In this document: piece by piece, positions 3,877-37,768 of the stretch
Layout of the letters: each line of letters starts with the position of its first letter
Position numbering within the stretch: position 1 is the stretch's first letter
DNA from: a virus
IMG/VR virus record: IMGVR_UViG_3300010412_000002
Coordinates: 1 to 64,000 of that record
Direction: 5' to 3' (one strand)
Length of the DNA stretch: 64,000 bases
The notes under the pieces: model-generated
Databases searched by the model: none
What the model saw: the letters and a program-made list of their open reading frames with translations, nothing else
Told to the model about the DNA's origin: nothing
Program-made: the position numbers and the translations under genes

Positions 3877-4123
3877 TGATTCTTCCTTTGAGTATGTATT
3901 TTCCTAGCGTTGTTGTGCTCGTTCCGATACTGTTTGCAATATCAGATAACGACCATCTTGTCCGGAGCTGAAACTCATCTGCTATTTTTGCCAAGTCTAC
4001 ATAATTCCCATGGAAAAAGCAGCGTTGCATAGCATCAAGTGTTAGCTCCATCCTCTCCTGATATGACATCAGATAGGGAAGTTTCTCCCCCACTGGGATA
4101 GTGATGGTATTTGCCATTAGCAA
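3869..4123 (-). CDS. small helix-turn-helix protein
   Basis: WSLSDIANSIGTSTTTLGKYI fits an HTH pattern. Confidence 0.55.
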   Translation of the reverse strand: MLMANTITIPVGEKLPYLMSYQERMELTLDAMQRCFFHGNYVDLAKIADEFQLRTRWSLSDIANSIGTSTTTLGKYILKGRING

Positions 4124-5081
4124 TCATTTTATCTATTAATTCCTTGGTAGCCTCTCTACCATATTTTGCATGAAAGTCAGAGATATCTTTAACTCCGTAT
4201 TTCTTAGGTATAAGCAGGTAAGGAATATCAAGTTCTTTGCTTCGTAATTCCGAACTTCTAATGCCCACCTCATCATTATCATAGAGCAAAAACGCTTGAT
4301 CGTGGGTCATTAGAAGGGCACGGAATTTCGGAGTGTTTATCCGAACAGTTTCAGAGCTAGGAGCAGTAGAAGTGTAGCCGAGCGAAAGGAGGACCAATGC
4401 GTCCTTTGCCGACTTTGTGATAATAAGGGTATCTCCCAGGAAGGGTAGTCGATCATAGAAGGCGGCGTCTTCCCTTTTTGCGAAAGATAACCACCGACTA
4501 CTCTTTCGAGTTTCCCTAGGACGATAATACTTAGCAGCTGGAAGTCCATATGGTAAACGATAGATTGGATTTCCCTCAGCATATTCCCAACGAAGCTTTC
4601 CATTTATATAAACAGTTTTGACGGATTGAATTCCGTAGTGAAGTAAAAGCTCTTTTGTAATACCGTATTGATTCCAGTATTCTAGGTCTTCAGGTGTAAA
4701 GTCTTGTTCTTCAAATGTTACTTCACGAACACGTTTAATATCTTTCTGCTTCTCTACAGCTTCCTCTACTTTAGCTGTATTTAGTTCGACTTTAAAATCT
4801 TTTTCAATTAGTCGGATAGCTTGCCAAAAACTTATTCCGTACTTTTCCATAACTACTGCAAAGCAATCATAAGTTTTTTCTTTTGCATAATCGTAAAAAT
4901 ATAATCTACCAGTTTTTTGACTTCTTGCAAAAGTACAACCTGGGTGCTTGTCATTTCGTAATGGATTTGTTACTTGTCCTTTATAATCAGGATCTCGATC
5001 GAGGTAGTGCTTAAATATAGCCTCTTCACCTATACGATCTAGAAGATACTTTTTATAAAATCTTGACCATTCATTATTCAT
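4035..5081 (-). CDS. DNA primase (DnaG/TOPRIM type)
   Basis: N-terminal NPLRNDKHPGCTF..YDCF; TOPRIM ITKSAKDAL, LYDNDEVG, KDISDF; ATG start at 5081. Confidence 0.85.
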   Translation of the reverse strand: MNNEWSRFYKKYLLDRIGEEAIFKHYLDRDPDYKGQVTNPLRNDKHPGCTFARSQKTGRLYFYDYAKEKTYDCFAVVMEKYGISFWQAIRLIEKDFKVELNTAKVEEAVEKQKDIKRVREVTFEEQDFTPEDLEYWNQYGITKELLLHYGIQSVKTVYINGKLRWEYAEGNPIYRLPYGLPAAKYYRPRETRKSSRWLSFAKREDAAFYDRLPFLGDTLIITKSAKDALVLLSLGYTSTAPSSETVRINTPKFRALLMTHDQAFLLYDNDEVGIRSSELRSKELDIPYLLIPKKYGVKDISDFHAKYGREATKELIDKMIANGKYHHYPSGGETSLSDVISGEDGANT

Positions 5082-5093
5082 GTTTTCGTTTTG

Positions 5094-5126
5094 TGGGGGA
5101 GCAGGCGACTTTTCACCTGCCCCCAA
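5094..5126 (-). other. GC-rich hairpin between the large ncRNA candidate and the primase start
   Basis: GGGGGCAGGTGA-AAAG-TCGCCTGCTCCCCC; no U-tract, so a processing or stability hairpin rather than a classic terminator. Confidence 0.55.
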
Positions 5127-5159
5127 CGCTTATTTTGCTACCACTTTGGTCCTCTTTTT

Positions 5160-5986
5160 CGTGTAAATCAGACACGATATTAGGACTATAAACGAGTGGG
5201 AGTATCAGAGTTAACAGATTAAAATAATGTTTGTAAAACATATGTACTGAGATGATACTGGGGACACAACCAATATTTCCCTCATGATCACAAGCTATTT
5301 CTCAGGTATTCAAGAGATGTAAAAGATCAGATGAGTTACTAAGTCATCTGACAACGGGAGTAAGAACATTATCTTCTTGCAACCAGAGGTCTCCAGCCTA
5401 CCATTCACATAACTATTCCACCCAATTAATCACTTGGTCTTTATACATAAGGCATTGGGGCGCTAAGCCAATTGCACTTTACATTCATCTTAATATCGCA
5501 GACTTACTTTAGGAGTGTGGTATCCAGTACCAAGCTGCTTTTGAATTCGTACCGTTAGAATTCATACACATCACTGCTTTAGCTAGCTTACGCTATCTGC
5601 TTTTTAACGAAGTCTTATCAATACATTGGACCAATGTATTAACAGTGTGTATCATACTATATCTCCATACGGGTAATGTAAGACCTCCCTGGCATATCGG
5701 GTGTATGCATAGGCGCGTATGTTTGTGATATAATATGCCTAGTCTCTGTGTTCTAAGACAGAGGTTCTTCGCTTAGATTAAATACATTTCAATATAGCAT
5801 TCCAGACGGCCATACTATAAGTGAGCATTACGCCAAACAGGCGATATGAACGTGTTCCGAGCAAACCAAAACAGTTCCTTTATTCTCTCTGTATTTAATT
5901 CCAGTAGTAGTATCACACTCTATCTACAATATCTGTCTCTCGCTTGGGGCGAGACTTGATATCCCACGCTCAATTGCGATTTACGT
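5160..5986 (-). ncRNA. candidate large structured non-coding RNA (about 825 nt)
   Basis: No ORF of 60 aa or more in any frame. Nested long-range pairs: 5163-69/5978-84, 5196-5207/5957-67, 5214-19/5931-36, 5231-37/5923-29, 5249-59/5909-20. About ten internal hairpins. Confidence 0.75.
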
Positions 5987-5991
5987 AATAG

Positions 5992-6546
5992 TTAGAACAG
6001 TGTGAAAGAATCTCCTGTTGCAGGCTTATTCTCCTTCGGCTTCATGGCTTTTAACTCGTAAGTCGAATACTTCAACGTAGGAGGGAGATCTGAACGATAC
6101 CGCTCGGCATATGGGGCGAAGCGAGGGAATTCAGACCAGCTGGGTTCGTCCTTATGCTGGACTAGCTTCAGATTGATCGGATATACGCCACCATTTTTTA
6201 GTGCGTCAACCGTCAACTTGGCTACATCCCCATATCCGCTCACGTTATCCGGGAGTTCGGCATCAGTGGATGAGACAACATACTGCAGGAGCAATTTGGA
6301 CTTGTCGCTTACAGAACGCTGATATGCATCTTCCCTAGTCTCTCCATCTTTCGGATAGACATATTTGTCGTCCGGATCGAAGATACGATCCTTCTTAGTC
6401 CTCCCAAACGAATCAGTTAGAAGAATATCTACAAAGTTTGTTCCTCGGTCGGCCCCAGAGATAGACACATTGCTGTGAATACCTGCCGGGATCGTCGTAC
6501 CACCACCTTTAATCTGGTTAACTTGTTCTTTCAGATTAATACTCAT
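5992..6546 (-). CDS. putative single-stranded DNA-binding/annealing accessory protein
   Basis: TTIPAGIHSNV N-terminus and short ...GDSFTLF tail, next to the Sak4-like ATPase; inferred from context. Confidence 0.45.
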   Translation of the reverse strand: MSINLKEQVNQIKGGGTTIPAGIHSNVSISGADRGTNFVDILLTDSFGRTKKDRIFDPDDKYVYPKDGETREDAYQRSVSDKSKLLLQYVVSSTDAELPDNVSGYGDVAKLTVDALKNGGVYPINLKLVQHKDEPSWSEFPRFAPYAERYRSDLPPTLKYSTYELKAMKPKENKPATGDSFTLF

Positions 6547-6548
6547 TG

Positions 6549-7220
6549 TTATACATTATGGTTATATTCGTCAATCGTGTCCAACAAAGTTTTGAGGTTT
6601 GCTGGAATCACTTTATTTTCAAACATACCTGCAGGCGTCTTTGCTAGCGGGTATTTTTTTGTCTTGTTTACTACTAACTGATATGTTTCAGTATCATCAT
6701 CATTAAAGACAACATTAGTGAATACACAAATTTCAGTTAGTTCAGCAGGATGATAATAATTTTTCATCATCTTACTGGGAACCTTGATCTCAGCACTTTG
6801 CATCCCATCATCAGAATCTTCTTGGTGGAATATCAAAATAACACGTAGATCTTGGCGCAGTTTTTCTACAGTATTCAGCACATAGAACATATGTTGTGCA
6901 AGACTTGAGAACTTATCAAAATTCTTTTCATCTGCGCGATCCATAAGCTCAGTATTTAAGATGTAATCAGCATCATCTACCACAATTGTTTTAATATGTG
7001 GCATATCTTTGCTAATTTTAATTAGAGCAGCAGAAACATGTTCATAGTTATTAGCTTGAATAATGTTTTTCTTTTCTGGAGAATACAATACCTTAGAACC
7101 TCTGAAAGGAAGGTTCTTACCTAGACAATTAATTACAAAAGTTGTGTCGGAGTCTAGGGTAGATATCATAGTTGATTTGCCAGTATTAGATCTACCAGCG
7201 ACGATTAAACTAGTTGCCAT
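6549..7220 (-). CDS. AAA_24 / Sak4-like ATPase
   Basis: Walker A GRSNTGKST, Walker B IVVDD, C-terminal AKTPAGMF. Confidence 0.8.
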   Translation of the reverse strand: MATSLIVAGRSNTGKSTMISTLDSDTTFVINCLGKNLPFRGSKVLYSPEKKNIIQANNYEHVSAALIKISKDMPHIKTIVVDDADYILNTELMDRADEKNFDKFSSLAQHMFYVLNTVEKLRQDLRVILIFHQEDSDDGMQSAEIKVPSKMMKNYYHPAELTEICVFTNVVFNDDDTETYQLVVNKTKKYPLAKTPAGMFENKVIPANLKTLLDTIDEYNHNV

Positions 7221-8218
7221 TATATTTCTTCGCTTTTATTTTTATAGTCTAGCACACGGGAATGTGCGAAATCTTCTACCATCATTAAGACAGATGGTAG
7301 ACCCCCTCTACTTTTTAGCACATGCCAATAGATCATACTTTTACTCGGATCTCTCGGGTGCTTAGCGGGTAGCCCTGCTGGAAACTTTTCTCCTACTCCA
7401 TAGGAAGTGATACCAAGAGTAGAAGGATTATGTGTTACTATCACATAGTCTGATGAAAAGAAAATGGCAGACGCTCCAAAAAGATCACTACGTTGTGGAA
7501 AATGTAACTTCGGATTCAAAATTCGTTCTTTGTCTTCGATATCTCGGTTCAACTGCGATAACAATATAAATAAGATTTTCATATCGTCATGGTCAAACTG
7601 CTTTTTGATCTCGATGCACATCTCATACAAGGATTGTAGAGTAGAACGTTCTGATTCCCCCTGTTTTCCTCTTGTTAGAAGTACGTGGTCTAACGTTACA
7701 ATTAGTCCCTTATTGGACTCTTTGATCCTTTGCTCTTCAGCAAACTGCAGGATCGTCTCTCGAATATCATCCACAGTACCCATATTATCCACGTAGAATA
7801 TAGGGTATCTTCCAACACTATCAGCGATCTCTTTCACTTGTTTCATCTCCTCCTCTTCTAACGGGTCCTCCGCACCAAACAGCTTACGAGTGCTGATTTC
7901 CATCTTACCGGAAATGGTACGTGCGATTTGATCAGTAGAAAGCATCTCAAATTCAAACGACAATATGACGAAATCTTCATCCGGATTACAGTCAACAAAA
8001 TCTCTTTTCCACTGTTCAGCAATCATGGACTTACCAGATCCTGATAATCCCGCTAAAGTTACAATTTTATTCCACTCAAAGCCATTAAGAGTAATCCTAT
8101 TTAGCTTCTCGTGAGAGACCTTTAAGGAGCGATATCTGCCGTATCTTCGCCCTTCGATGTAGTCAATAGTCTTCTTCGCAGCATGGCTTATGTGCCGATA
8201 TTGCAATTTAGATGACAT
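7220..8218 (-). CDS. DnaB-like (SF4) replicative helicase
   Basis: AGLSGSGKS, SFEFEM, LDHVLL, LLSQLNRDIE and RSDLFGA motifs. Confidence 0.9.
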   Translation of the reverse strand: MSSKLQYRHISHAAKKTIDYIEGRRYGRYRSLKVSHEKLNRITLNGFEWNKIVTLAGLSGSGKSMIAEQWKRDFVDCNPDEDFVILSFEFEMLSTDQIARTISGKMEISTRKLFGAEDPLEEEEMKQVKEIADSVGRYPIFYVDNMGTVDDIRETILQFAEEQRIKESNKGLIVTLDHVLLTRGKQGESERSTLQSLYEMCIEIKKQFDHDDMKILFILLSQLNRDIEDKERILNPKLHFPQRSDLFGASAIFFSSDYVIVTHNPSTLGITSYGVGEKFPAGLPAKHPRDPSKSMIYWHVLKSRGGLPSVLMMVEDFAHSRVLDYKNKSEEI

Positions 8219-9835: not shown

Positions 9836-9900
9836 TTTATATAATTGAGGAGGGCAGGGCATTACGCCCCACCCACTCAGAATATTGCACACTTAATTGT

Positions 9901-11918: not shown

Positions 11919-13853
11919 TTAATGGACCCAGTGATCAGTTATCACAGGAGTTGCCTCCATAGGAATGTGCGTACAAAATAATCTGCCTGATTCTTCCATA
12001 CACCATTTTATTTTCTTAGCAACTTCCGGAGCTAAGTTCCTATCACATTCTATTACAATCTCATCATGTACAATGTTGACGATCATGACCTTGTCCCAAA
12101 GATCATTCTCTTGTACATACCTCCTAAAGAGGATTGAAGCGTACTTCGTCATGCTCGCCCCAGTACCTTGAATTGGGTAATTCTGAGCTTCTCTCTCTAT
12201 CTTTCCTAGACTCGAGTAGAATCGGCTCCAAAAATACTTGGGGATTTCGTACCCTCGACTCTTATAGTAGTCGATTAGATCTTTATAATAGATGTACTCG
12301 GTATATTCAGGTGGGTAATAGCGACGTTTGGTAACCGGATCAGTTACGATATAACCATTCTCACGAACGAACAGTTTAACCTTGTTGAAATATGGCTTTA
12401 ATCCAGGAAAAGTTTCAAACCAACGATTTATAAAATCGCGAGCCTCTTCCAACGGGACTCCAAAGTCTTTTGCTAATTTATACTCACTCATACCGTAAGG
12501 AATTCCAAAATTTAGACGTTTTGCATAGAACCTTAGATCAGTATTGACATCTTTGCTCACCTCTACTCCATACATACGGGAGGCGGTGAAGGAATGAGGA
12601 TCACCCCCTTTATTATTAAAAAAGTCAATCATGGCAGGGTCGTTGGCCAAATCGCCCATAATTCTAGTTTCCTGAGCAGCGTAGTCAGTCACTACAAGGA
12701 CGTTACTTTGGCTTGCTGGCACAAAGCACTTTCTGTAATCACTATCCCGCTTTATGTTCTGCAGATTCGGAGAAGTAGAACTCATCCGACCTGTATTTAA
12801 GATTTGATTGTAGTTTGAATGCACCCGCCCAGTGCTAGGGTGGATATTAGACAGGAACTTGCTGCCGTAAGTATTCAAGCTCTTCTGATACTCTTTCATT
12901 GTTAAATACAACTTAACGAATGGAAAGCGCTCTGAGTGTTGCTCGATGTTTGTTCGCTGAACACTGTCTTTGTAAACAGGTTCACTAGATAATTTCGACT
13001 TTTCTTTATCAAGGATTTGAATGGGAATCCCAATTTCCTTAAACAGGGCCCCAACTTGCTTAGAAGAATTCCAATTTATTCCAATATAGTCATCCAATCT
13101 ATTATCTAACAACCATTGATTCAAAATTTTCAAGGCCTCAGCGAGTTTCTCTTCAACTTCTAGTCTAATTTCGTCCCACAATCGCGGGTCTAAATAGAAA
13201 CCATTAGTTTCGATATCGCCTAGTACAAGTGAATACTCGTTCTCAAGCCGGGCACAAGTGGTTTGATCCGTTTCTTGCAAAAGAACTTCTTGTGCGCGAT
13301 TAATCTGTAGCGGTAAAACTACGTCATAAGCCCCATATAGAATATGGGAGGGCGAGAACTCTGAATCATTTAGAGTTGAAAACTCTTTACGAATATCCTT
13401 ACTCAGAGTTTCCTCAAAGAGAGAAAGCTGATTAGAATAGCTGAAAGTTGTATAGCGTTGGGACAGAACTTCTAGAGAGGCTTTTCCTGGTTTTCCGCCG
13501 AGTAAGATGCGTTCCTGAAGAAAACAATCCTTAATATTTTCGAGTCTAATTCCTAGACGAACGAGGAATTCATAATCAAACTTTCCATTTACCATAACTT
13601 TTGTCACCTCTTGGCTCTCCAATATGCCTTTCAAAGGCGATAGATCTTGGTACCTGGCGTCAATGATAAATTGATTAAGTTCATCACCTATCTGCAGCAT
13701 GATTATTGAATCCACTAGAGGGTCAAGACCTGTTGTTTCAGTGTCTAACCCCACAATCTTTGTAGGACTGGAATTTATGTAATCCAAGACCTCGTTTATG
13801 GTCGCCGCGTGGAAATCTCCTACTCTGTACGGCGCAACAAGATGTATTGTCAT
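11919..13853 (-). CDS. polA: DNA polymerase family A (3'-5' exonuclease plus polymerase, no 5' nuclease)
   Basis: ExoI LDTETTGLD; TGRMSSTSPNLQNI; motif A DYAAQETRI; motif B KRLNFGIPYG; motif C VHDEI. Confidence 0.95.
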   Translation of the reverse strand: MTIHLVAPYRVGDFHAATINEVLDYINSSPTKIVGLDTETTGLDPLVDSIIMLQIGDELNQFIIDARYQDLSPLKGILESQEVTKVMVNGKFDYEFLVRLGIRLENIKDCFLQERILLGGKPGKASLEVLSQRYTTFSYSNQLSLFEETLSKDIRKEFSTLNDSEFSPSHILYGAYDVVLPLQINRAQEVLLQETDQTTCARLENEYSLVLGDIETNGFYLDPRLWDEIRLEVEEKLAEALKILNQWLLDNRLDDYIGINWNSSKQVGALFKEIGIPIQILDKEKSKLSSEPVYKDSVQRTNIEQHSERFPFVKLYLTMKEYQKSLNTYGSKFLSNIHPSTGRVHSNYNQILNTGRMSSTSPNLQNIKRDSDYRKCFVPASQSNVLVVTDYAAQETRIMGDLANDPAMIDFFNNKGGDPHSFTASRMYGVEVSKDVNTDLRFYAKRLNFGIPYGMSEYKLAKDFGVPLEEARDFINRWFETFPGLKPYFNKVKLFVRENGYIVTDPVTKRRYYPPEYTEYIYYKDLIDYYKSRGYEIPKYFWSRFYSSLGKIEREAQNYPIQGTGASMTKYASILFRRYVQENDLWDKVMIVNIVHDEIVIECDRNLAPEVAKKIKWCMEESGRLFCTHIPMEATPVITDHWVH

Positions 13854-18261: not shown

Positions 18262-18758
18262 AGCTTGTACATTTTATTCAGAAGGATCGTTTGGTATTTT
18301 TTGTTAACCAACTTTCTAATTCTGGAGTACAGCTCGCGCCGGAGTCCTTCTAAGAAGTAATTGAATTCAAAGGTTAAGTCTACGTGAGTACGTAGAATCG
18401 GCGAATTGACTATAATGTTCTTCAACGTGAATACTTCTTCGTCTAAATCAACTTCCTCAATATCACGCAATATTTCTTGGAACAGTTTTTGTTCCGTTCT
18501 GCTGCTGATGAATTGTTCGCTCTTCCATCTTCTATCCTTGTTGAATTTTCTGTACGTGCTAGGTTTTTCAACCATTACAGGCATAGGTTCTTCAACTTCC
18601 CAATCTTCTTCATCAAAGTAGTCTTCGAGGGTCTTGATATACCCTTCGTATGCGCTTACATCAACCTTTTTAGGGAGTAAAGGGCGCAGTTTTCGATCGG
18701 AAAAGGTAGAAGGAGAAGGTGTCTTAACCCTCTCCCCCCACAGAATTTGTCTCCGCAT
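18249..18758 (-). CDS. hypothetical protein
   Basis: 169-aa ORF, translationally coupled to its neighbours. Confidence 0.5.
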   Translation of the reverse strand: MRRQILWGERVKTPSPSTFSDRKLRPLLPKKVDVSAYEGYIKTLEDYFDEEDWEVEEPMPVMVEKPSTYRKFNKDRRWKSEQFISSRTEQKLFQEILRDIEEVDLDEEVFTLKNIIVNSPILRTHVDLTFEFNYFLEGLRRELYSRIRKLVNKKYQTILLNKMYKLWDD

Positions 18759-24772: not shown

Positions 24773-25015
24773 TTCCTAGAATATATATGAAAGTTGGAGT
24801 AACTAATACCATTAAGCCAAGCATCTGTAATTTCAGTGTACGAGGTATTGGGGTCTCTACGGAGGGAGACGAAACCAAACACATGGCCGTCTCCCTTCCA
24901 TAAAGTACCTTCTCAATCCGAACTAACACATTTGGCTGGTGTCGAAGAACACATTCTTTGTAACCTTCGATTGTTTTCGGGGTCACCAGCGTTACAATAC
25001 CTTGAATTGTTCGGA

Positions 25016-30150: not shown

Positions 30151-30447
30151 TTAATCTTCCATGAGCAGTTCAATAAGATACCACTCTTTGTAGCTTATAG
30201 GGTTATCGGATAAAGAAAATGGCAAATCTTCTTCCGTTACTTCAAGTTCCTGCACATCAAAAATTAGATATGCCTCATCTTTTACGATTAAAAAGGTGTC
30301 TATTTCTTTCTTTTGCCTACGAAAGAATACAAAATGTACGTCGTTCTTTATGGCTGCAATTAGCCATAAATTAGTGGGGGGAGACCCTTGAGTCTCCCCA
30401 TCCACTGCTTTACCCGTCATCGCTGCTTCATTACAGGTTTTACCCAA
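30151..30447 (-). CDS. hypothetical protein
   Basis: Short ORF in the operon. Confidence 0.4.
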   Translation of the reverse strand: MGKTCNEAAMTGKAVDGETQGSPPTNLWLIAAIKNDVHFVFFRRQKKEIDTFLIVKDEAYLIFDVQELEVTEEDLPFSLSDNPISYKEWYLIELLMED

Positions 30448-31420: not shown

Positions 31421-32109
31421 TGGCGCAATAGTTGGTGGATTTGCATTGGCGGGATCTCGCATAAGATCTCGCATACTTCTTTTTCCCATTTTTCCTTTGG
31501 TATTTCGTCGTACATTGTTTCAAACATCTGGTATGATAAAAGGGCCAGACTGTTATCGACGGATTCACGAATTCCCGGACTCATATCCCGATGAGCTGTT
31601 AAAGCCAAGATAGCTTCCAGCAGGGAAAAGTATTTTCTGTGAAGGTCTGAATCCCCGGCGATTACATTCCAGGAATATCGGAATAAGCTCAATGAGGTAA
31701 ATGCAGGTGGATATACCCTGCTACTCTTTAGAGCCGCCAAAAAGCAGAGGCAATGAAAAGCCTCTGTGAAAATTGGCTTATTCTCTTTTGCGTTGCGTAT
31801 CATGGAGCTTGGAAAACGCCCTGCTTTTAATGTAGCGGATAGGCTTCGGTTTTTCCATATTCGTAGAACCGTTTCGGCCCTGTAGACTGAGACGATAAAT
31901 ATGTATAAGCCCAGTCCCATGACGATTGCAGCTGTGGTTTTTCCGAGTGGTTCGGAATGGTAAAGATTCAGTGCTCCCCATATCAATGCGAAAGTGAGGA
32001 ATACATGTAAAATTACCCAGAGGACCCCTTTAATGGCCTCATTGCGGTGATGCAGGAATGTGAATTCCATTTTTGTTTCTTTTTTCTGGATGAAAGAATT
32101 AGAGAGCAC
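31396..32109 (-). CDS. membrane protein
   Basis: Two N-terminal TM helices. Confidence 0.55.
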   Translation of the reverse strand: MLSNSFIQKKETKMEFTFLHHRNEAIKGVLWVILHVFLTFALIWGALNLYHSEPLGKTTAAIVMGLGLYIFIVSVYRAETVLRIWKNRSLSATLKAGRFPSSMIRNAKENKPIFTEAFHCLCFLAALKSSRVYPPAFTSLSLFRYSWNVIAGDSDLHRKYFSLLEAILALTAHRDMSPGIRESVDNSLALLSYQMFETMYDEIPKEKWEKEVCEILCEIPPMQIHQLLRQCEGSNFS

Positions 32110-32168
32110 TAGGGGGCTCCGGGGAGGATCACCCCCTAGCAGACTCTCCAGAATTGGTTCTTGCCCTG

Positions 32169-34930: not shown

Positions 34931-35003
34931 TTTCTTAGAGATTGGTTTTGATTTAATTGGGGAGACGACCTAAATCGTCCCCCCTGAGCGACATGGGATT
35001 GGT

Positions 35004-35525
35004 CTATTCCATGCCACTCTGCCCAAACACGGTGAGCTCAATGCAGTGCATGAGCATCATCCGCTCCAATTTTGCAATTCGCCCCAGACGGAAATGGCTA
35101 CGGGCGTATTTTATCGACCTGCGGTATCTTCTCACAATCCGATGATCTCCCGGGTAGTTTGCTGCCATGTACATGCCAAGCATTGAGGTTTGATATTCCT
35201 TGATGTGTGCAGTTACGTAGTTTGCGATTTGCTGTTCCCGGATCATGCCAAGTTCTTGCATCCTGTCTACCAAACGGGTAGACAAAATGAGCATTGCATC
35301 TGGGTAATAGAACAGTTCCAGGAATTTGTCGGTTGGAGCAAAAGATAGACGTCTTTCTGTTTGATAAAAGACATCCAGATTCGCGCTTTCATTAAACAAG
35401 CGCGTTTCATACGAAGACAATGCGATTATATTGGCCATTTTTAATGGAGGTTGGTGACTCGTTAAAAGAGAGGACAACATAAATGCTGCCCTCTCCGAAG
35501 GAAATTCCCAGGTTATACTGCTCAT
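35004..35525 (-). CDS. hypothetical protein
   Basis: Probable start MSSITW overlaps the stop of the upstream gene. Confidence 0.5.
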   Translation of the reverse strand: MSSITWEFPSERAAFMLSSLLTSHQPPLKMANIIALSSYETRLFNESANLDVFYQTERRLSFAPTDKFLELFYYPDAMLILSTRLVDRMQELGMIREQQIANYVTAHIKEYQTSMLGMYMAANYPGDHRIVRRYRRSIKYARSHFRLGRIAKLERMMLMHCIELTVFGQSGME

Positions 35526-37213: not shown

Positions 37214-37261
37214 GCTGTTTTTAAAAGAGAATGAGGAGAGCCGGAGCCCTCCTCAAAACTC

Positions 37262-37768
37262 TTAGGCGATGACCACGTATGCAGGCATGAAAATCACCAT
37301 TTTTCCGTCGTTTCCTTCAAAATCGGAGCGAGGAACGACGACGTTGACATCTTGACCGAGTTTTCCGATGAGTGCGGGAATGTCGGCGACCGTGTCAAAA
37401 TTGCCGTTCAATTGAACGACGTTCAGGGTTAAACGTCCGTTGAGCTTGCGTCCGCTTGCCTGGTGCGTGAAGATACCAGCAGCGTAATACACTTTCTCCC
37501 CGCTATCGCGGGTGCGAACGAAAACTTTTCCGTTTGCTTTGAAGGTAACACCCGCAAGGGTATTTTCGTTTGCAACGAGGTCAGCGAAGGCACGCAACGA
37601 TGCACCAGCACCACCACGTCCAGCGAGCAAATTTGCTGCTTTATCCGCTTGCATGGCATTGATGAGATCAGCCGTTGTCCCTTTGAATTCCGTTGCACGA
37701 ATAATCGTCGCATTACCGTTATTAGCGGTTGCTGGAACGGTTGGCGGAGTTGTTTGTTGTTCAAACAT
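37262..37768 (-). CDS. first gene of the leftward arm, hypothetical beta-rich protein
   Basis: Start MFEQQ at 37768; strong codon bias; followed by the hairpin GAGGAGGGCTCCGGCTCTCCTC. Confidence 0.6.
   Translation of the reverse strand: MFEQQTTPPTVPATANNGNATIIRATEFKGTTADLINAMQADKAANLLAGRGGAGASLRAFADLVANENTLAGVTFKANGKVFVRTRDSGEKVYYAAGIFTHQASGRKLNGRLTLNVVQLNGNFDTVADIPALIGKLGQDVNVVVPRSDFEGNDGKMVIFMPAYVVIA

Follow-up and report, generated by a model that had tools for sequence, protein, structure and literature searches.

A gene-free stretch of 919 nt in the replication module of a crAss-like sediment phage probably encodes a large (~0.75–0.9 kb) structured non-coding RNA that belongs to a family outside Rfam; the probability that we assign to this reading is about 0.6. 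The stretch lies within positions 1 to 64,000 of the IMG/VR virus record IMGVR_UViG_3300010412_000002. Hereafter, these 64,000 nt, which are the whole stretch of DNA analysed, are referred to as the window, and the gene-free stretch is referred to as the element. All positions are those of the window.

5073-5991, minus strand: the whole non-coding stretch (919 nt), the candidate large RNA locus, from the stop codon of a 184-aa gene to the ATG of the primase gene

The strand of the element, the ends of its transcript, its existence as a single molecule, its action in trans and any function that it has are what we infer from the observations described below.

The element has one known relative, which is represented by contigs of 1,385 and 1,332 nt (~88% identical) from two freshwater-sediment metatranscriptomes of one study. 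These contigs cover the 184-aa gene, the 5′ part of the element (5991 to 5511) and its 3′ part (5269 to 5074), and they differ from the window at 159 positions in all. By this alignment, the element was shown to be conserved in the relative. Of two other runs, the probable source run (X1) gave no contig, a negative that may be false, and X4 gave a 36-nt piece from another organism. The remaining part is a domain of another kind:

5270-5510, minus strand: variable domain, in place of which the relative carries ~100 unalignable letters (joints 5269/5511 with 100 letters between, and 5269/5595 with 185 letters between)

On the same alignment, the uncovered middle is a replacement, not a deletion. 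The pattern of conservation is modular: invariant blocks stand beside 24%-diverged stems, and the swapped middle domain is flanked by conserved ends.

The evidence that carries the RNA reading was obtained from compensatory changes between the two sequences in the following domain and helices, the stretch that is fully covered by the first 40 of the 159 differences:

5595-5742, minus strand: covariation-supported domain, with 36 substitutions in 148 nt against the metatranscriptome relative
5737-5727/5663-5653, minus strand: helix A, in which 4 of 11 pairs changed on both sides with the pairing kept
5721-5716/5671-5666, minus strand: helix B, in which 2 of 6 pairs changed on both sides with the pairing kept
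5710-5706/5680-5676, minus strand: helix C, in which 3 of 5 pairs changed on both sides with the pairing kept
5640-5632/5628-5620, minus strand: hairpin D, in which 1 of 9 pairs changed on both sides, in addition to three G.U pairs

In the two-sequence consensus, 10 of the 31 pairs are double-changed with the pairing retained, and 91.9% of the cells are paired. None of 500 shuffles matched this covariation, and slid controls gave values of 0–1. When the pairs were predicted from the window only, 7 double compensatory changes were found, as compared with 1.35 expected from random placement of the substitutions (P ~1e-4). These compensatory changes indicate that the pairing is under selection. 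The substitutions also cluster as runs of 3–4 adjacent bases, and codon periodicity is absent from them; we regard such adjacent-substitution runs, which swap the strands of a helix, as the signature of a structured nucleic acid and not of coding or neutral sequence. Covariation against relatives had been proposed as a check in an initial annotation of this DNA, and strong compensatory change was thus found in a 148-nt domain of one relative.

Within and beside this domain, the following blocks were recognized:

5680-5706, minus strand: apical block of 27 nt inside the covarying helices A–C, invariant except for one C/U change; a candidate tertiary-contact or binding site
5595-5625, minus strand: block of 31 nt that is identical in both phages and adjoins 24%-diverged sequence
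5535-5603, minus strand: AAAGCAG in three copies over 69 nt, each immediately 3′ of a hairpin (the two strands of the window together have 21 copies)

For the CUUCGUU in the 31-nt block, pairing with 5773-5767 is predicted (p 0.76), which would close the domain. The first AAAGCAG copy of the cluster sits in this same block. The cluster may mark a site for a protein, a strand that makes a tertiary contact or a duplication within the element.

The element was also shown to have no coding capacity. The primase begins at the ATG at 5072, and its homologues align from residue 1–2 of that form; the gap was therefore set to 5073-5991. The initial annotation had described an open reading frame (ORF)-free gap at 5127-5991, and the ORF lists agree with this, the gap now being widened. 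No ORF of at least 60 aa occurs in 5127-5991 on either strand, and recoded frames do not exceed 66 aa with TAG=Q or 102 aa with TGA=W. All six frames of the gap are closed, whether read with code 11, TAG=Q or TGA=W. The best frames of the element, including the recoded ones, have no match in Pfam, and tblastn of 2,422 ORFs from the loci of relatives returned only noise; a decayed protein gene was rejected because no frame showed protein similarity in these searches. The single-base indels of the relative inside the element (5874, 5900, 5906, 5913, 5189 and 5136) rule out a conserved reading frame, and a 42-aa ORF at 5113-5241 was rejected as a gene because those at 5189 and 5136 are single-base deletions in the relative. 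No further copy of the element was found in the genome. Among the intergenic spaces of the 106,629-bp genome, 5073-5991 is the sole gap of more than 260 nt, and the presence of a sole large gap in such a tightly packed phage argues for a function.

As for the overall fold, five nested helices (P1–P5) had been described in the initial annotation, through which the two ends of the element would zip together. All of their segments are present, and two of the helices are favoured in the predicted ensemble:

5967-5957/5207-5196, minus strand: P2, long-range helix, ensemble p 0.95–1.0
5937-5932/5218-5213, minus strand: P3, long-range helix, shifted by one base, ensemble p 0.88

The other three (P1, P4 and P5), however, have p ~0, and the winning pairings are 5991-5985/5144-5138, 5931-5922/5503-5494 and 5920-5914/5519-5513. 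According to this model, P2 and P3 probably bring the conserved ends together; both strand segments of these helices lie in the ends retained by the relative.

Most of the local hairpins described earlier are favoured as well, with ensemble p values of 0.85–0.98: UCUCGC/GCGAGA (0.94), CGCC/GGCG (0.98), the AAUACAUUGG hairpin (0.93), UAGC-GUAA-GCUA (0.85), GAAUUC (0.97) and CAGAUGA (0.95). Two did not stand: GGCAUAU..AUAUGCC was rejected, the overlapping helix A being backed by covariation instead, and UGGUA/UACCA is absent from the minimum free energy (MFE) structure. The element also contains palindromes at 5542-5564 and 5581-5588 of the minus strand, namely, GAAUUC twice (the hairpin) and AGCUAGCU, the latter overlapping the 3′ strand of the GUAA-tetraloop hairpin. 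Both GAAUUC and AGCUAGCU could equally pair between two molecules.

The minus strand is modestly favoured. The consensus structure is stabler on this strand, by 1.4 kcal/mol in the window and by 5.3 kcal/mol in the relative; hairpin D of the relative contains three G.U pairs, which are workable on the minus strand only; and the neighbouring genes are all on the minus strand, the element being located in a co-directional block. On this strand, the element closes with the following structure:

5092-5127, minus strand: G/C-rich hairpin at the 3′ end of the element, located 20 nt before the primase ATG, −24 kcal/mol

This hairpin is the most stable 36-nt window in the whole genome on either strand, and the indels of the relative in this region fall in or beside the loop. 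It is not followed by a U-tract. It is a probable terminator or 3′-end stabiliser, one of several GGGGAG/CUCCCC-type hairpins that are spread along the early region on the minus strand.

In the metatranscriptome run X2, the word depth was 21.9 for the contig that carries the 184-aa gene together with the element, versus 4.1 for the primase contig (unstranded contigs of one study). This difference is a weak hint that fits an RNA unit composed of the 184-aa gene and the element and ending at the terminal hairpin. Because the contig ends disagree between the two metatranscriptome runs, no transcript ends are claimed. One contig of the relative begins exactly at the start codon of the 184-aa gene. 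A sigma-70-like promoter match (TGGACA-17-CATAAT, 10/12) is located directly upstream of this gene at 6555-6583 of the minus strand; the sigma-70-like and terminator scans as a whole were at chance level. Near the element, no site of the Bacteroidota-type promoter TTTG..TAnnTTTG was found, and the count of this motif in the window is at chance.

The occurrence of the element among phages is narrow. No homologue was found in the phage database (blastn) or in 58 loci of distant primase relatives, and none of 57 more distant loci has a comparable gap beside the primase gene. The primase scans of IMG/VR gave no close relative (at most 35% identity), that of GTDB gave no relative, and that of JGI gave only the locus L059; closer primase relatives (P0002–P0006, 50–65% identity) are known as proteins. 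In L059, whose primase is 45% identical, the 184-aa gene has a homologue of 200 aa (21% identity over the full length, E 0.007), which stops at 1165; the primase match follows from ~1200, and the element is absent. The element is thus best described from these comparisons as a lineage-specific insertion into the replication module, so far seen in two sediment phages. The initial annotation had suggested a class from Bacteroidota crAss-like phages, a scope that proved too wide, as neither the primase relative at 45% identity nor any of 45 crAss-like records at a greater distance contains the element.

Several results weigh against the reading as a large structured RNA. The first group concerns the fold. 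The MFE z-score of the element is −5.2 on the minus strand and −2.6 on the plus strand, and coding controls of equal length gave −3.4, −4.1 and −2.3; the z-score, which had been proposed as a check in the initial annotation, is unexceptional against these controls and was dropped as evidence. The pairing between the 5′ and 3′ ends is likewise weakly above that of dinucleotide shuffles, with a z-score of −2.7 for the duplex energy and −1.2 for the cofold gain. The long-range helices and the fold outside 5595-5742 are thermodynamic predictions, and the covariation test covers 148 of the ~900 nt (5595-5742) in the single relative known. In addition, two or three positions pair better on the plus strand, the expression data are unstranded contigs of the relative from RNA runs that may also contain DNA, and the function is not readable from the sequence. 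The second group concerns the occurrence of the family, which may be very small: three exact-block scans of IMG/VR were empty, a block scan of the GTDB genomes returned no more than two 21-mers, both matching by chance, and a covariance model of the 148-nt domain recovered the domain itself but nothing in the 45 records of the relatives.

The conclusion of the initial annotation that this is a large structured RNA therefore stands on a changed basis: the covariation, the lack of an Rfam family and the location with the replication genes support it, while the zipped helices and the folding energy are weakly above chance or do not discriminate. Conserved ends, a covarying arm, an invariant apical block, a replaceable peripheral domain and a terminal hairpin together make up the architecture of a large functional RNA. 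If this RNA exists, it would be transcribed together with the upstream DUF669/single-stranded-DNA-binding protein (SSB)-like gene, beginning right after the stop codon of that gene, and would end shortly ahead of the primase gene, at the hairpin that is the strongest in the genome. Its conserved 5′ region (5991-5511) and conserved 3′ region (5269-5127) would be joined through P2 and P3. The 5′ region would form one multi-helix arm with compensatory pairing around the invariant apical block, and 5270-5510 would be a peripheral replaceable domain. By analogy with GOLLD and with the transfer-messenger RNA (tmRNA) and early long non-coding RNAs (lncRNAs) of the phage phi14:2, which appear to be of this nature, the molecule may be a stable accessory RNA made early in infection.

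We also considered explanations in which no such RNA is made. One is that the element is a cis-acting structured spacer, that is, a very long 3′ untranslated region of the SSB-like gene, a leader of the primase gene or both, whose hairpins, chiefly the terminal one, set the ratio of the two products or stabilise the upstream mRNA; no RNA would then act in trans. The element does fill the whole space from stop to start, the strongest hairpin of the genome lies at its end, 20 nt before an A-rich primase leader, and the RNA contigs link the element to the upstream gene, the primase contig having an approximately five-fold lower depth. However, the homologous gene pair is closely spaced in L059 and hence needs no such spacer, and a length of ~900 nt is far beyond the needs of attenuation or stabilisation in a genome that has no other gap of more than 260 nt. 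In addition, covarying helices around an invariant apical block that is distant from both genes resemble a folded functional core. We consider this explanation unlikely.

Another explanation is that the element functions at the DNA level in replication, as an origin, as a site of initiation or primase loading on single-stranded DNA (ssDNA), or through a primer transcript like the RNA II of ColE1, which is a structured replication-tied RNA of several hundred nucleotides. The location, which is within the replication module and immediately upstream of the primase gene, would suit such a role; moreover, Watson–Crick covariation by itself does not distinguish an RNA from an ssDNA structure, and one strand is only weakly preferred. 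The likeness to RNA II is nevertheless one of position only, since the element has no origin-like composition or skew: an AT-rich dip, iterons and tandem repeats are all absent, and its GC content of 0.39 equals that of the genome. The minimum of the cumulative GC skew and the most AT-rich window are instead located at 36–38 kb, at the divergent gene switch. Known ssDNA initiation signals measure ~100–150 nt, not 900, and related phages carry the same replication genes without the element. These points make a replication element improbable.

The relationship to known RNA families was examined with Rfam 15. At the gathering score, no family matched in the window, and at E ≤ 10 only noise was obtained in the element (snoR104, 19.7 bits; cow-rumen-3, 16 bits). 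The families that the initial annotation had named for a cmscan search, including GOLLD, ROOL, introns, RNase P and tmRNA, thus gave no match to the element.

GOLLD deserves particular attention. Its model, RF02032, represents the conserved 3′ core with a pseudoknot (416 positions; gathering score, 150 bits). At E ≤ 10, it gave no match in 4900-6200, in 5090-5995 or in the whole genome, and as a positive control it scored 211.7–215.9 bits in 3 of the 45 records of the primase relatives, which are environmental crAss-like phages. In these, GOLLD is located at L063:1501-2342, in L064 (the same sequence over the aligned locus) and at L065:1501-2250, on the minus strand of each locus. A pistol ribozyme (68–69 bits) is present ~300 nt upstream on the same strand, and it would free the 5′ end of GOLLD from the operon transcript.

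A further explanation is that the element belongs to a known family of large RNAs but is so divergent that the Rfam model misses it, with GOLLD being the likeliest candidate, as it occurs in other crAss-like phages. The two resemble each other in being phage RNAs of ~0.8–0.9 kb with many helices, and the GOLLD of the relatives occupies an ORF-free gap of ~0.93 kb that is co-directional with small early genes, a setting like that of the element; the A-rich linkers of the element with AAAGCAG / AAAGUAAGUCU also faintly recall the GOLLD consensus AAAGCAAAAGUCU. Against this, RF02032 is silent at E ≤ 10 although it detects the three relatives with 212–216 bits, and both an nhmmer --max profile of the full GOLLD loci of the relatives (L063–L065) and blastn at word size 7 gave only chance matches to the element. 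The 3′ half of GOLLD is its conserved core, whereas the matching part of the element, 5270-5510, is the replaceable domain. The element also has no flanking self-cleaving ribozyme and no tRNA neighbours: ARAGORN found neither tRNA nor tmRNA in the window, a tRNA neighbourhood being frequent but not universal for GOLLD. Membership in GOLLD is therefore not supported and we regard it as very improbable, while the resemblance in the setting is real.

The other large RNAs can be treated briefly. ROOL, OLE, HEARO, raiA, RNase P, tmRNA and the group I/II introns are alike in size class and helix density but have no covariance-model match; the ROOL model gave none at the gathering score or at E ≤ 10. 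A group I/II intron was rejected because of the lack of a match at E ≤ 10 and because the element lies between two complete genes. As in tmRNA and in rRNA precursors, the two ends of the element can pair. A tmRNA was nevertheless rejected, since ARAGORN and the Rfam tmRNA models were negative on the element and both find the tmRNA of phi14:2; the terminal stem of 7 bp, CUAUUAC/GUGGUAG, lacks G3.U70 and is not followed by ACCA. An RNA linked to a reverse transcriptase (retron, diversity-generating retroelement or defence-associated reverse transcriptase) was rejected because RVT_1 is absent from the genome.

A further comparison is provided by phi14:2, a crAss-like phage of Cellulophaga, in which the long early intergenic regions g004-g005 and g005-g006 are sense-transcribed above most genes (bioRxiv 10.1101/2020.03.07.982082). 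Like the element, these regions are long ORF-free stretches among early genes; they belong to a marine phage and include a gap of 1.7 kb (NC_021806 2905-4601). Unlike the element, they are located at the left end, ~5 kb upstream of PolB, and blastn similarity between them and the element was not found. The g005-g006 region holds a tmRNA gene of ~470 nt at NC_021806 4031-4502 on the plus strand (RF00023, 46 bits against a gathering score of 47, E 7e-16), for which ARAGORN gives the tag peptide GSSVQKLAMVA*; the RefSeq record has no RNA feature there.

Finally, a functionless remnant, either a decayed gene or a dead mobile element similar to a miniature inverted-repeat transposable element with imperfect terminal inverted repeats, would agree with the lineage-specific insertion and with the partly complementary ends, but it is scarcely credible because the compensatory changes show pairing under selection, no frame showed protein similarity, the genome holds one copy and neither the phage database nor the IMG/VR blocks hold another (the GTDB block scan having returned chance 21-mers only), and the spacing between P1 and P2 is 10 versus 26 nt on the two sides, unlike that of terminal inverted repeats, with no target-site duplication seen.

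Returning to the large structured RNA, a more specific proposal can be offered tentatively and at somewhat less than even odds. The element may be the first representative of a family of large (0.75–0.9 kb) phage RNAs that has not been catalogued. In one sediment crAss-like lineage, it would be a non-homologous functional analogue filling the early slot of GOLLD or tmRNA, possibly with higher-order assembly via the apical block and the palindromes GAAUUC and AGCUAGCU. According to a preprint, solved examples of GOLLD form RNA-only cages (bioRxiv 10.1101/2024.12.08.627333). It appears that the early region of crAss-like phages reserves a slot for a large RNA, which is occupied by canonical GOLLD and a pistol ribozyme in three relatives, by the tmRNA and lncRNAs in phi14:2, and by an unrelated RNA in the present phage. 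If this is true, a comparison of the unrelated RNAs in one slot could reveal a shared task. To our knowledge, GOLLD and ROOL are among the few big natural RNAs that have no known function or protein partner. For structure determination, a new family whose covarying core is compact and whose apical motif is invariant would also be a good choice; the evidence consists of two sequences, and its value is mainly that of a well-defined lead.

The source record is a complete virus of 106,629 bp with direct terminal repeats of 144 bp, the window being its first 64 kb. Near-identical DNA was found in a marine-sediment metagenome only, and the primase shares 28–35% identity with the primases of crAss-like phages that infect Bacteroides, Cellulophaga and Flavobacterium. 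A block of minus-strand genes spans 1–38 kb and includes the replication module. In addition to a resolvase-like gene and a gene for a RecE-like exonuclease, this block contains the following genes:

11919-13853, minus strand: DNA polymerase
7220-8218, minus strand: DnaB-like helicase
6549-7220, minus strand: Sak4-like annealing protein
5992-6546, minus strand: 184-aa gene, DUF669-like, a possible SSB, upstream of the element and found together with it on the metatranscriptome contigs
4035-5072, minus strand: DNA primase, downstream of the element (phrog_12622, E 9e-39; homologues)

The 184-aa gene had been labelled SSB-like in the initial annotation. It has no match in Pfam or PHROG, but its structural neighbours in ESM-Atlas are DUF669 phage proteins (TM 0.65–0.71); the label is plausible on this predicted structure and serves as a lead only.

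Very stable G-rich hairpins of the GGGGAG...CUCCCC type (−19 to −22.5 kcal/mol), some with U-tracts after them, occur across the minus-strand early block:

178-213, 9844-9879, 18706-18741, 24862-24897, 30373-30408, 32107-32142, 34951-34986, 35464-35499 and 37228-37263, minus strand: the G-rich hairpin set

These are probably terminators or RNA-stabilising elements of the early region of the phage. Outside the window, at the right end of the genome, a single ORF of 6,679 aa occupies 85863-105902 on the plus strand, and it is followed by a gap of 260 nt and the 144-bp terminal repeat.

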